DNA from: Marsupella aquatica
Lineage: Eukaryota; Plantae; Marchantiophyta
DNA: 64,000 nucleotides
Assembly: GCA_973895155.1 (NCBI GenBank)
Contig: OZ316891.1
Span: 10,169,875-10,233,874, forward strand
Reading direction: 5' to 3'
The first letter of the stretch is position 1. Every line of letters starts with the position of its first letter. Under the pieces are notes generated by a model. The model saw only the letters and a program-made list of their open reading frames with translations. It did not search any database and was not told where the DNA came from. Shown here one piece after another: positions 48,548-61,000 of the stretch. Both the position numbers and the translations under genes were made by a program.

Positions 48548-49909
48548 ATGGCCGCCGCCGCCGCCTCGTTCGTCGCCATGTCGCTCGGGACCTCTGCTGC
48601 TCTTCAGACCGCAACGACCCAGAAATTGGTGAGATTTCGTTCTTCTGCACCCACTCTCTCTCTCGCTCTGCTGGAAGTGATAGAGTGATGATGCTGCTTT
48701 GCTCGATTCGGCTCTGCTCTGTTACGCTCGTGGTCTTAGATCAGAGCCAGCTGCAAGAGACTGAAACACGGACAATGCCAGGAATGGTTTGGGTGGTTGG
48801 GTGGTGCGATCGGGGACACAGCGTTCGTTAGAGCCAGAGGAACCGCCACTCATGGTGGCATTTGAGTTGAGAATATTCAGAGCTGGTTTGAACATGGTTC
48901 AAGCTTGCTCATCAGGAGCAGACGTAGACTGTTATTCTTTTCAATGGGGCATTGGAGCAGACTCTCCCTATGAATTTCTGGGTCCCGTCTCGTACGAAAG
49001 TGGGAAGAGAAGCCTACGCAAAAGAAATGGTCCTACTTAGAAACCAGAACCGTCCTATTCATGTAGGAGTGATTTTTCAAGAACGTGGAGCCTGACGTTT
49101 CATCGGGATCGAGCTAGTTTGCATTGTTCCAGAAACAAATCTGATCTATGTTTGTCGGTTCTCTTGCAGTCTGTGGCTAGATTCAATGGACTGAAAGCCT
49201 GCCCGGTGCTCAGGCAAAGTGCTGTCATCTCCCGCCCGGTTGCCATCCGACGCCTGACCATCAGTGCCTCTGTAAGTTACAAACTCTTCGACGTCTTTCA
49301 TGTGAAGCAAGTACTATTGCAGTGGACTATGGGCCTTGACCGATTTTTGGTTTCGATATTGTCCTCAGGGTATGAACCGATTTGCCTTTCTGCAGTGTTA
49401 ATCCCATTGGCTGGTTGCTGTACAGGCTAAGCCAGATACTCTCTCAGCTGTTCAGGGGATCATTGCCCAGCAACTGGCTGTAGGCGTCGAGAAGGTGCTC
49501 CCTGAAGCCAAGTTCGCCGATCTTGGTGCTGATTCTCTTGACACGGTAAGCAGTTCCACTGTGAAAGACTTGAAGTGGAAATAGTCACTACACTGGACGA
49601 TGCTGAGGAATATTTATTTTTTCGCTTCCATAGCCTGCCACAGGAAATGCTTGGCGTCCACCTGAAGTGCCTTAAGGCATGTCCATTTTCCGTCTTCCGG
49701 ACCAGAGCCTGTCCTCGGCCACCAATGAACGACGAATGTTATGTCCAGAGGATTTATTTGTGGAGGCTGATTTGCAATGTGGGCGGATTCAGGTGGAGAT
49801 CATCATGGCTCTCGAGGAGACATTCAAGATCACCCTCGATGAGGAAGGTGCCCAGAAGATCTCAACCGTACAAGAAGCAGCTGACTTGATTCAGACCTCC
49901 ATCGAGTAA
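48548..49909 (+). CDS. ACP: Plastid acyl carrier protein, 4 exons
   Basis: Exons 48548-48628, 49170-49271, 49426-49545 and 49793-49909, all phase 0. A transit peptide is followed by AKPDTL...[25 protein letters not shown], which contains the phosphopantetheine Ser (DSL). Confidence 0.96.
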
Positions 49910-51184
49910 GAAGTTAGACCTCACATTGTATTTGACGACTTCAAAATCGTTCGTTTCGAAATTTAGAAAAATAATCCTTCATCAGTGATCCGGAATCGGT
50001 GTTGGATGAAACAATTAGAGCTGGGGAATCACTGCGATTCGTGGGTTCCCGACCTCATTCCACATTTTTGGGCTTGCCCACTGATATGGTCGGCATACGG
50101 ATTAGAGTAAGGGCATTGGCGGAAGAAAGTCTGATCTGTGTAGGAAAATACTCATTGTTGCAAGTCTAATAAAGCACTGGGTTCCTAAACATCCCCTGAC
50201 GGAGCAACCTGTTCTAGCTCGAATTGCATGGAAGTTTGTGAATGCATTCGAGTTTTGGAGGAGAATTTTAACGTTTCCAGACTGTCATGTCCGACACAGT
50301 CAGCTGACTCGGTGAAGCAAGTCATGGGGAATTAACACATGCATCAGTGATGAGGAATGAACATATTCATGGACAATGAGAAGCAGGGACAGATCAACGC
50401 AAGCTGAGACCTCTTTTCTGAGGGTTGTCGTTAACCGAGAACACCACTAGATGATGTATATCAATTGATAAAGTTGACAGCTCGAAAATTGTGGGAGTCA
50501 GGACGTCGGGTGTTATTCTGAAATGTCAAGCCTTTGTCCATTCTCCCCTGCACTATCTCCGAATGAGTCGGATCTGGTTTTCACATTTTTGTTCACGCCT
50601 CGAGTCGTACGCCCGTATTAGAATAAGTTGGAGTCATCGGGGATCTCTCATGTGTTGTCAAAGAAAGGGTTCCTCTCCTCTGTTTCTCCTTCTGAATCGA
50701 ATCTCCCGAGAATACGGGCGAGGAATGTCGTCCTCGTGAATCGAATCTTCCGAGAATAAGGAGCGAGGAATGTCGCCCGCAGCCGAAGCTTGCATTCGTC
50801 CGAAAAGGAATCTTTCTGTGGGCGTCTCACAAAGATGGCAGCATAGAGGATGACAGCCTGTACCGAACGGACCAACCTACCCCACCGGGGATGTGTCCTC
50901 TACCAGAAGTCCAAATGCACGGTTGTCGTCTGCCCAGACTGCCTGTGATGTACAAACCCTCCCTTAAACCTCTCCACTCCGACAGGAATCAAATCCATCC
51001 AAGACGAGATCCGTCTCATGCCTTCGGAATCGTCGAACCGTCCAACAAGACTTAAGGTTCCTTCATGTTGTCGTCTTTGCTTCCAAACGACAACCATCGT
51101 CTCTCGATATTCATCAGTAAGTGTTTTCAGCTCATATCCCATACTGGATTATATCCCCAAAAATGCAATGTACACGTCTGTACC

Positions 51185-58067: not shown

Positions 58068-61000
58068 ATGGTAGCGGTTTCAGCTTCTATGATCGTTGGT
58101 GCTGTCTTCGGATCCGTGACTGCGCGGCAGACGGCTGCAGCCCAGGTGTGGATTTTGATAGCGAGCGCTCTTTGAGAGATTCAAGGACTGTCCTGTAATC
58201 TTCCCCCCGTTTTTCCATCTCAGCTGGTGTTCGTATCTCTGTAGTAGATGTGGTCATTCAAGAGTAGTTTTTCTGTTCTCTCAGTGACAATAATGCGCGA
58301 TTTAGAATGTATGACGTTGTCATCTATTGGAATCTATGGTCTTTTCCAACATGAAGATATCGTCGTTTCTACCTGTTTGCAATCTGTGATGGGCGGTACG
58401 TACTGTGACAGAAATAAGTTTTCCCAGTGTTTTCTGTGAACAGTATCCTTGATATAGAAACTATGACACGCCTGGGAAGCTTCTGAGGTAGAACTCAGGT
58501 GCTTTGTATCTCTCTCGAGTTTGTGGTGGACTTGTCCACGCAGAATGAGGTCTGCTTCACTTGAAAGTTGACGTTATAAAAGTCAGTGGGTGCATTAGCA
58601 TGTTAGTTTTTTTCCATGGTTTCCGTCCCAAGAAGTGAGATTGCAACTCATGTGGTGTGGGTTGCTTTAGTCGTGTTGTGGCGTCTGGGTCCATAGCTTT
58701 GTTGTTGGTCGGAGTTCGTGGTCTCTACTTCTGGAGTATCTTATTGCAACTATGTAGGAGCTGAGGAGTCCTTTTACTTTCCTTCATCATTTGTTTCGTC
58801 AGCATTGATGGACTATCGAGAAGTTTGTCTACTGTGCTGTCTTTTTCTGTACAACTACTTTTGGTTCACTAGTGAAGCCTGGATCTTAGCGTTTTGTAAT
58901 CTGACTCTCATTTCTACATTCCGTTTTGCAGCCGGTTGCCACATTCAATGGATTGAGACCGCGTCCCGTGTTGAGGCAAACTGCAGCCTTCCGCCTCCCT
59001 GTGGATCCTCGGAAGTTGACCATCACCCCCGCTGTAAGCTCTTACATCGTATTCCCCTTTGAATGACGAGACGAACCAAAAATCTACCTTAGAAAACAAC
59101 CATCTTCTTGTTATCAAGTGGGTGGGTTAGGGGTTTTGTGAAGTTGACACATCTGGAGTCTTGGTCTGAGGCTGGCTCGCGTTTATAGCACCATTTAATC
59201 CAGAGGCCAACGACACAATCATGTAGATTAATATCATTTGTTTTCATCGGGTAATATGAATCTAATGACTTGAAATAGGTACTGCATTTGACAATGTATG
59301 CACCCTACAATCCTCTAGTTTCATCCGAGTAATTTAGGAGTTGTTCATGGAAAATGAGATGTATTCATCGACTTGCCTGCCTGGATACTTTCACTTCTGA
59401 GCTTGAAATGCTTTTGGGCTTTGTCCGTGGTGATAGAGTCTCGGGTTAAGGGCAGTTGTCAGCTCTATCTCATAAAATTTTGTAGTTTGTGGTGTCAAGG
59501 TACGAGGGTGGAATGTGTCTCGCGAGATGAGACTTGTCTCATACTTCCTTAGGTCTTGTTCTCGAATGCTCGAACGAAGAGCTTGAATATTTCGCGTCTA
59601 TCAAATATTAGACCCAGCAAAGCGGGTAAAATATGGACCCTCGTCTGTTAATTTGTATGTTCATGTTTGCCACTATGCTATGGAGTAACCCTCACATCCA
59701 AACATTATGCCTTCTCACATATGCTATATTAGTTCTGGCACAATTACCACGGCCCCCACTGTTTCCCTGGGTCACCCGGTATTTGTCCCTGCGGACAGAC
59801 GGATGGAAGGAAGGAGAAACCTTTGTTCCTTTAAAGCCCTCACTAGCTCGGGATTGAACGCACACGTCGGAACCATGATCAGTGCTGCAACTTTTTTTTC
59901 CTTCAGGGGTCTGCAGTCAGGTTGACAAGAGTCGCACTCGTGGAAGGCACTGTTGCTCACACCGTTTATGATTTCCCTTCTGCACCAATTCTTTTGCCAG
60001 AAGGGCCATGGACACAGGTAGGTTTCAAATTTATTTCCCTGTTGATATGTTTTCCATTAAAGCTGTCCTTCTATCAATGATGTTGATTTTCGCGTATTCA
60101 TGATGGACCCAATAGATTTTGATGGATAGGTTTAGTGATATAGCACTCAATGGGTGATCCTGGGCAATTTTTGCTGTGCACCAGGCTTACACTTTGTGCT
60201 TAACTGTTCTTACAGATCCCTGGAGGTGTCACTGCTGCAAGTGGTTTCAAGGCTGCAGGACTTTATGGAGGACTACGTGCCGTTGGACAAAAGCCAGACC
60301 TAGCTTTGATCGTGGCTGATGATGATGCAGTCGTAGCAGGTTGTTCTGCTCCCTTTCTCGAGGAGTTTGTCCATGGAACTCTGCAGAACTCTAGGCATTA
60401 TAATCTATGTAAATGGTTCCTTCTTGTTCTTAACTGTCTCATTTCATGTGTTCAAATCTTTGTCCGTGATTGTAAGGACATCTTGTGCACATAGAGACAG
60501 GTGTTCCAAACGCAGGCGAACTGTCACTATCTTAAATGTTTAGAAGTCTTTGTTGAATTTCTTTTTCAGGAACGTTTACAAAGAATCTCATGGCAGCTGC
60601 TCCCGTTGTTTACTGCAAAGATGTTCTTGCGAACTCCTCTACCGTGGGTCCTCCTTGTCGTTGCACCCCTGATCACTTCTATATTCGTGGTCCTAGAGTT
60701 TGCTGCTGCTGTCCAAGTGCTTTTGAGTTTTAGACTCCTAGCTGAAACTTCGAATTTATGAAAGTTAGATGTGCTTGTCTCAGCCACCTTAACAACGTAA
60801 ATCATATTAAAAAATTGTGCTTTGCAGGCCCGTGCCATTCTTGTAAATGCTGGACAAGCCAATGCAGCCACGGTCAGTTTGTGCGACTCTTCTGCTTTCT
60901 CGCCACTTTACTAGTCGATGATTTCACACATAGTTTCATGCGCATGGGTTACACTAGCTGAGTGGAAATATTCTATGTACTGATTTTGGTGCTTTGAATG

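Follow-up and report, generated by a model that had tools for sequence, protein, structure and literature searches.

A borrowed targeting tag of the sort considered here is known from rps14/sdh2 in grasses, and Long et al. in 1996 reportedly described exon shuffling as the origin of the targeting peptide of plant cytochrome c1. In the SODcp-RPL32 case of the Malpighiales, a gene takes the transit-peptide exon or exons of a plastid-targeted nuclear gene, and in Populus donor and recipient are now separate genes with related N-termini, as described in two papers (PMC8429499, PMC7488351). In Passiflora, rps7 lies in an intron of trx-m3 (PMC7488351). A survey treats exon shuffling as a recognised source of targeting peptides and whole-peptide insertions and deletions as possible exon swaps; it reports no alternative-first-exon candidates and considers transposons insignificant as a source of transit peptides (PMC7456531). 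The window analysed here, a stretch of 64,000 nucleotides (nt) from the liverwort Marsupella aquatica (assembly GCA_973895155.1, contig OZ316891.1, positions 10,169,875 to 10,233,874), contains a gene for an acyl carrier protein (ACP), termed ACP-A, and on the same strand an ArgJ gene. The best named matches of both genes come from Calypogeia fissa, which by itself points to a leafy liverwort. By the sequence comparisons described below, this ArgJ gene likely underwent a lineage-specific exchange of its N-terminal tag for one of a second ACP type, ACP-B, in an event linked to a dispersed repeat.

The ArgJ locus resembles SODcp-RPL32 in that the tag exons would have been taken from an existing plastid-targeted nuclear gene. 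RPL32, however, arrived fresh from the plastid and untagged, whereas ArgJ is a long-resident nuclear gene that would have exchanged an existing extension, and for ArgJ nothing evidences a stage of shared exons. With rps7/trx-m3 and rps14/sdh2 the locus would share the fusion through an intron behind a transit-peptide exon. In those two cases an organelle gene was inserted into a host gene, and alternatively spliced transcripts give both products the identical tag; the ArgJ tag, in contrast, is 59% like that of the nearest ACP, and the mature exons of the donor are gone from the ArgJ locus. As in exon shuffling, which works through unequal recombination or mobile DNA, targeting exons would have passed from one nuclear gene to an unrelated one. 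For ArgJ, unlike the cases in that survey, the donor family can be identified, and what was borrowed is itself a repeat dispersed in the genome. A literature search covering few subscription journals and no supplements returned no description of an ACP-derived tag on ArgJ nor of a Calypogeia ACP.

The two gene models comprise the following parts, all on the forward strand, with lengths in amino acids (aa):

48548..48628, +, ACP-A exon 1, 27 aa, predicted first half of the transit peptide
49170..49271, +, ACP-A exon 2, 34 aa, phase 0-0, predicted second half of the transit peptide
49426..49545 and 49793..49909, +, ACP-A exons 3-4, mature acyl carrier protein by homologues
58068..58145, +, predicted ArgJ exon 1, with ATG, 26 aa, ACP-family derived
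58932..59033, +, predicted ArgJ exon 2, 34 aa, phase 0-0, ACP-family derived, nearest to protein P0137
59907..60017, +, ArgJ exon 3, the first native exon, where the homology of relatives begins
60216..63927, +, ArgJ exons 4-16, catalytic core; the gene extends past the window

The ACP-A model has 4 exons and the ArgJ model 16 exons with 453 aa before it runs off the window; both are open, with AG and GT at all intron ends. ACP-A exon 1 shows 85% identity with residues 1 to 27 of the Calypogeia fissa ACP P0122, and exon 2 shows 28/34 identical residues with the C. fissa ACP and 25/34 with that of Marchantia paleacea. The domain PF00550 is found on P0123, a homologue of ACP-A. The ArgJ core is of the PF01960 type (domain match on its relative P0003), has the DGDTSTNDT motif intact and is 90 to 93% identical to P0001, P0002 and P0003 over 393 columns, with 92% for C. 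fissa.

In both genes exon 2 is 102 nt long, preceded by AG, in phase 0-0 and followed by GTAAG. The two copies align gap-free with 65 of 102 nt and 18 of 34 aa identical, and at 10 of the 18 shared residues the codons differ. None of 200,000 residue shuffles reaches 18 identities (mean 2.8, maximum 12). The similarity ends at the exon edges, where flanking 20-nt bins show only 3 to 9 matches, and no other site in the rest of the window, on either strand, exceeds 47/102 for exon 2. Control N-termini, the 33 scorable ones out of 37 full-length ArgJ proteins, show at most 8/34 to ACP-A exon 2 and 7/34 to ArgJ exon 2. The exon 1 pair shows a weak similarity above that of shuffles, with 17/5000 as good in global alignment, 66/5000 in local alignment and 55/5000 at the DNA level. 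Introns and 5' untranslated regions (UTRs) of the two genes are unalignable and show no similarity beyond shuffles. The synonymous divergence (dS) between the two is ~1.1 for exon 2 and ~1.4 for exons 1 and 2 together, with a ratio of nonsynonymous to synonymous divergence (dN/dS) of 0.28 (bootstrap 0.08 to 0.55). The ArgJ tag is rich in serine, threonine and arginine and contains one acidic residue in 60. By these alignments, the homology of ArgJ exons 1 and 2 with the exons that encode the N-terminus of plastid ACPs goes beyond what chance would give. The ACP-type N-terminus is present on ACPs of C. fissa, Marchantia and Riccia, with 21 to 28 of 34 residues identical to ACP-A exon 2; because related ArgJ proteins have another N-terminus, the direction of transfer is from ACP to ArgJ.

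An earlier note on this DNA had described the exon 2 match with its length, phase, GTAAG, gap-free 18/34 and synonymous codons, the tandem genes ~8 kb apart on one strand and the direction from ACP to ArgJ, all of which agree with the present results; the distance from the ACP-A stop to the ArgJ ATG is 8,159 nt. The comparison with shuffled controls that it had proposed likewise bears out the match, and the refuting outcome it had named, unrelated transit peptides of similar gap-free identity, did not occur among the 33 control N-termini. Its statement that exon 1 is similar holds for size (27 and 26 aa), with the sequence only weakly alike. In wider searches, ArgJ exon 2 extended by six intron codons and run against a word index returns 10 candidates, none at an expect value (E) of 10 or less; a metagenome scan with the exon 2 frame gives 599 pattern matches and 0 confirmed; and an atlas search with residues 1 to 61 of the C. 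fissa ACP gives one match, at 0.79, under the lead level. Twelve metagenome loci found with a liverwort ArgJ stretch (48 to 70% identity; L012 inspected) were taken as bacterial or spurious, and none was used.

Related ArgJ proteins show what the borrowed exons would have replaced. P0001 and P0002 (Logan) and the C. fissa protein P0003/P0121 have an N-terminus of their own of 60 to 69 residues, which stops exactly where exon 3 of the window gene starts; in exon 3 the window protein shares 30, 27 and 31 of 37 residues with P0001, P0002 and P0003. These native N-termini are mutually related (24/60 to 44/68 identical) and score like shuffles against both tags of the window, 325 to 1324 of 2000 shuffles being as good. 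Searches of all six frames of the window by tblastn and profile hidden Markov model (HMM) return no native N-terminus (best E 1.6 to 1.9), and the same methods detect no native ArgJ 5' exon in the 59.9 kb upstream. In the core tree, built from the window ArgJ and 17 of the 37 full-length proteins over 393 columns, the window gene and C. fissa stand together, separated from P0001, P0002 and 13 angiosperm-type rows (ultrafast bootstrap, UFBoot, 87), and therefore the native N-terminus is ancestral. From its position, its composition and the "chloroplastic" names of angiosperm matches (PMC4520006), we infer that this native N-terminus is a transit peptide; ArgJ transit peptides of plants vary, according to PMC13725253. 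The number of residues up to the first conserved motif is 86 to 95 in P0001 to P0003, compared to a median of 52 over 33 ArgJ proteins, and 86 in the window protein with its swapped tag, so the length is kept. The recipient in rpl32/SOD-type cases previously had no targeting peptide, whereas relatives of the window ArgJ have an ancestral one of their own. The window ArgJ thus likely swapped an existing N-terminal extension, as opposed to the gain of plastid targeting that the earlier note had suggested, and it did so after its lineage had diverged from Calypogeia and the other lineages with a native ArgJ N-terminus.

The nearest relative of the tag belongs to another ACP. A profile of both exon 2s finds four proteins at E<=0.001 among 1.84 billion representatives; the sole strong match is P0137, a complete ACP (E 2e-14), and the weak matches P0138 to P0140 are repetitive proteins and were dropped. 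The mature part of P0137 is identical to that of ACP-A at 49 of 78 positions (63%). ArgJ exon 2 shares 23/34 residues with P0137 compared to 18/34 with ACP-A, and the whole ArgJ tag 35/59 compared to 29/59; of the tag columns, 10 agree with P0137 and 4 with ACP-A. ACP-A exon 1 ends in two residues that neither the ArgJ tag nor P0137 has, and codons upstream of the ArgJ ATG also align with P0137 (residues 4 to 29 at 58056-58136, tblastn E 0.021). In trees of the tag with 10 rows, from which P0124, P0129 and P0131 were excluded as identical or doubtful models, ArgJ joins P0137 with support of 96/95 under JTT+G4 and 93/90 under C20. A placement of the ArgJ tag as sister of ACP-A is rejected by the approximately unbiased (AU) test (p 0.018 and 0.042). 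The ArgJ tag probably came from a P0137-type ACP and not from the neighbouring ACP-A, and an interim reading with the ACP-A lineage as donor was overturned by the similarity to P0137 and the trees. This placement also removes a paradox, namely, that the tag is farther from ACP-A than the Marchantia ACP is, though the swap postdates the Calypogeia split. P0137 and P0127 represent a further type of plastid ACP, which shares the two-part N-terminus and whose mature part is only ~63% like ACP-A; the exon of P0127 groups weakly with P0137 (UFBoot 72). The search for ACPs (33 candidates) missed P0137, and its lack of an ACP-B from C. fissa is consequently uninformative.

Exons 1 and 2 are very probably spliced to exon 3 and used by ArgJ, and they are predicted to act as a plastid transit peptide. 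This use is predicted because the gene is intact, single-copy and of normal rate, exon 3 cannot start the protein, the native exons are missing and the splice-site scores are ordinary. The ArgJ core branch measures 0.042 compared to 0.046 for C. fissa, without acceleration. The frame upstream of exon 3 contains a stop and no in-frame ATG, so a start in exon 3 is precluded. The four splice sites of exons 1 to 3 score within the range of other introns; between 57700 and 59910 the exon 3 acceptor ranks 1st of 139 AG and the exon 2 donor 2nd of 178 GT. In 49950-59850, no other strong exon runs in phase 0 from an ATG to a donor save two overlapping candidates from 51018. In simulations of neutral decay, the open reading frame (ORF), ATG and splice sites are kept in 0.5 to 17% of runs, a result set aside as proof of use by ArgJ after ACP-B was found. 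The dN/dS is likewise no independent proof of use, because most of the divergence may have accrued on an ACP gene.

The earlier note missed that the borrowed segment, introns included, is a member of a dispersed multi-copy family in the same genome. Two further features describe it:

57850..58830, strand not assigned, multi-copy segment with ArgJ 5' UTR, exon 1 and intron 1; left edge approximate (57781-57862)
59674..59853, strand not assigned, repeat of ~180 nt that closes the multi-copy unit on the right and contains a weak hairpin as well as a CTAG at 59843

The evidence is drawn from the contigs of four public runs that belong to two studies; the runs X1 and X3 were analysed in more detail. 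Contigs of all four runs pile up over 57969-59070. The summed contig depth in X1, which is no measure of copy number, is 18 to 19 at 57700-57780 and from 59887, 329 to 936 over 57862-58185, 69 to 88 over ArgJ exon 2 and 492 at 59644-59724; 57700-57780 and the ArgJ core have single-copy depth. Firmer than depth are the distinct contigs: up to 21 X1 contigs differ at 58118 and 26 at 58484, and five others differ within exon 2, at 58962 and 58971. Contigs of 4.2 to 13.2 kb with depth 9 to 17 align to the multi-copy segment over just 170 to 420 nt, and 271 of 332 X1 contigs are 80 to 95% alike to the window segment. Copies that bear exon 2 include X1 contigs of 13,152 nt (record 7, aligned over 58912-59165) and 4,255 nt (record 4). 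At the 59674-59853 repeat, nine contigs have loose ends before 59674. One or more of the exon-2-bearing copies may be the ACP-B gene itself.

Helitrons and Pack-MULEs are transposons carrying gene fragments; Helitrons have a 5' TC and a 3' hairpin with CTRR and insert between A and T, and Pack-MULEs have terminal inverted repeats and a target-site duplication. The unit resembles these and the Replitrons (PMC10288648) in being a ~2-kb stretch with host 5' exons and introns and many partial copies; the CTAG and the weak hairpin close to its right end are suggestive at most. It differs in that no transposase, terminal inverted repeat, target-site duplication or terminal direct repeat of at least 8 nt was found on it, its termini are undefined, and shared sequence runs 7 nt beyond CTAG. 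The CTAG at 59843 is followed by C and 7 more shared bases, and the left end is undefined. Between the approximate ends (57740-57920 and 59800-59906) there is no direct or inverted match longer than 7 nt, hence no terminal inverted repeat or target-site duplication as in Pack-MULEs and no terminal direct repeat of at least 8 nt as in Replitrons. A Replitron transposase lies elsewhere in the window, at 18993-20303 (-) (PF21859, E 7e-14; PF21860, E 5e-6), flanked on both sides by tandem repeats; no link to the ArgJ segment is shown. Replitrons occur in liverworts, as stated in the same source (PMC10288648).

Several explanations compete with the borrowing of an ACP-B-type tag by a functional ArgJ. 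Transit peptides are alike in composition and ArgJ exon 1 alone is only weakly similar, which would suit chance or convergent composition; this reading has a negligible probability and is refuted by the shuffles and controls, by the same length, phase and position of the exons and by the match of E 2e-14 to the independent ACP P0137. A direct copy of the ACP-A exons, perhaps through a stage in which one set of 5' exons served both genes, was the proposal of the earlier note. The genes are adjacent on one strand with compatible phases, which would permit an in-frame splice 49271>59907, four tag columns agree with ACP-A, and residue 13 of exon 2 is valine in ACP-A and ArgJ but not in other ACP-A proteins. 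P0137, however, also has this valine and is nearer overall, the AU test rejects the placement, and ArgJ exon 2 shares 18/34 with ACP-A compared to 24 to 25/34 for the Marchantia ACP despite the younger swap. With the dS of ~1.1 to 1.4 and the unalignable introns, a copy of ACP-A is very improbable, and the proposed ancestral sharing finds no support beyond the phases. A third reading holds the ACP-like exons to be an unspliced, repeat-borne orphan fragment upstream of an ArgJ with an undetected first exon or a failing function. The segment is multi-copy with many seemingly partial copies, and the low dN/dS, like the survival of the ORF, may be due mostly to the period in which the exons served an ACP-B gene. 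Against this stand the missing native 5' exon in 59.9 kb upstream, the near lack of another strong first exon in 49950-59850 (the two candidates from 51018 excepted), the intact, single-copy and unaccelerated core and the preservation of ATG, frame and every splice dinucleotide, which make an orphan fragment quite improbable.

The route of the swap is more evenly contested. A local intron-to-intron fusion that exchanged the native ArgJ exons for ACP-B-type ones, predicted to be spliced, has about an even chance of being correct. An ACP-B gene would once have stood between ACP-A and ArgJ, and one deletion would have joined two phase-0 introns, its own intron 2, at the repeat that ends at 59853, and the intron preceding ArgJ exon 3. 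The same deletion would have removed ACP-B exons 3 and 4 together with the old promoter and 5' exons of ArgJ, and the same repeat would have helped to disperse copies of the ACP-B-type 5' end; what remained would be a normal plastid ArgJ whose tag and promoter region are borrowed. A local event is favoured because ArgJ adjoins an ACP gene and the native exons are cleanly lost. In C. fissa, ACP CAM6125982.1 and ArgJ CAM6125984.1 are both on a 4,346,915-nt contig with one accession number between them, and ACP CAM6124280.1 and ArgJ CAM6124274.1 are both on a 4,667,061-nt contig with five between; since they too share contigs, the neighbourhood would predate the swap. A number of points weigh against this account. 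The C. fissa synteny derives from equal-sized contigs and close accession numbers and not from DNA, no ACP exon 3-4 remnant is found near ArgJ, and the presumed ACP-B at the ACP-A/ArgJ locus is placed there in no genome. ACP-A and ACP-B are old paralogues, and their lasting tandem arrangement is an assumption. P0137 is one sequence, the ArgJ tag branch is long (0.43 to 0.59), the AU p-values are barely below 0.05, and without P0137 in the tree ACP-A is the best placement of the ArgJ tag. The exon junctions and the plastid targeting are predictions from DNA alone. Finally, the multi-copy unit and the borrowed segment have matching limits on either side, for which a mobile cassette is at least as simple an explanation. 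Such a non-autonomous element of ~2 kb (57850-59853) would have picked up the 5' UTR and the two tag exons from an ACP-B gene at another site and increased in number, one copy then landing in sense in the intron before ArgJ exon 3, with the old 5' exons lost later and the same swap as the result. Consistent with it, copy number goes up at one border of the borrowed unit and down at the other, exon 3 always lying outside, seven contigs depart at 59853, 54 nt before exon 3, into differing flanks (255 letters or more), and pieces of intron 1 are repeated more often than exon 2. Two contigs skip exon 2 and link intron 1 directly to the 3' repeat (58637>59793 with 14 letters between, 58732>59835 with 23 letters between). 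Among the 40 rows listed of 491, 10 exon sites distinguish the window from other copies, and at 9 of them those copies have the ACP-A base, compared to an expectation of 0.15 per site, which would make the window copy one derived member. However, landing next to an ACP gene would be a coincidence, the native exons would have had to vanish in a second event that left no trace of them, the two ends show neither terminal inverted repeats nor a target-site duplication, and most of the listed skips contain unknown letters and possibly reflect divergence and not deletion. A landed element is a somewhat unlikely route but the strongest rival. Clearly unlikely is the broader proposal of a transposon-borne targeting cassette (5' UTR, ATG, two ACP exons and a phase-0 donor) whose dozens of copies retargeted or re-tagged host genes, ArgJ now relying on one of them and further copies with exon 2 standing at the head of other genes.

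Besides these features, the ACP-A region (48050-51950) occurs once more in runs X1, X3 and X4 as a closely similar copy, with differences in exons, introns and 3' flank and four residue changes among the seven coding sites listed. Because the ArgJ core has no second copy in X1, this would be a segmental duplicate and not a homoeologue. In X3, window-identical contigs (50523-57085) have a depth of 34 to 40, ArgJ contigs (59689-63952) one of 54 to 58 with a few differences, and the second ACP-A copy one of ~59; the sample may be mixed, or the segment on the ACP side may show presence/absence variation. High-copy repeats lie at 62111-62268, 55214-56315 and 53010-54111; the first is inside an ArgJ intron, and ~80 to 100 contigs leave it at 62267 into A/T-rich flanks. 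The seven ORFs between ACP-A and ArgJ show no Pfam domain, and the single Rfam match in 52000-60000 (E 0.048) is far under the family threshold. Elsewhere the window contains a xyloglucan fucosyltransferase at 8894-10453 (-) (PF03254), a nucleosome assembly protein gene at 29700-33900 (+) (PF00956), a Copia long terminal repeat retrotransposon at 39785-44108 (-), from gag to reverse transcriptase and broken by stops into four frames, and tandem arrays at 45488-45631 (18 nt), 47430-47820 (~112 nt) and 56865-57242 (66 to 69 nt).

Earlier cases of borrowed tags are mostly fresh organelle transfers, whereas ArgJ is a conserved, long-resident nuclear gene that appears to have given up its own N-terminus, and for which the donor family, the breakpoint intron and the outgroups are all identifiable. 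How far repeats contribute to the movement of targeting exons, a contribution judged insignificant in PMC7456531, is testable here in one genome. The ArgJ of M. aquatica would thereby represent a natural swap experiment on the interchangeability of targeting tags and 5' regulatory regions.

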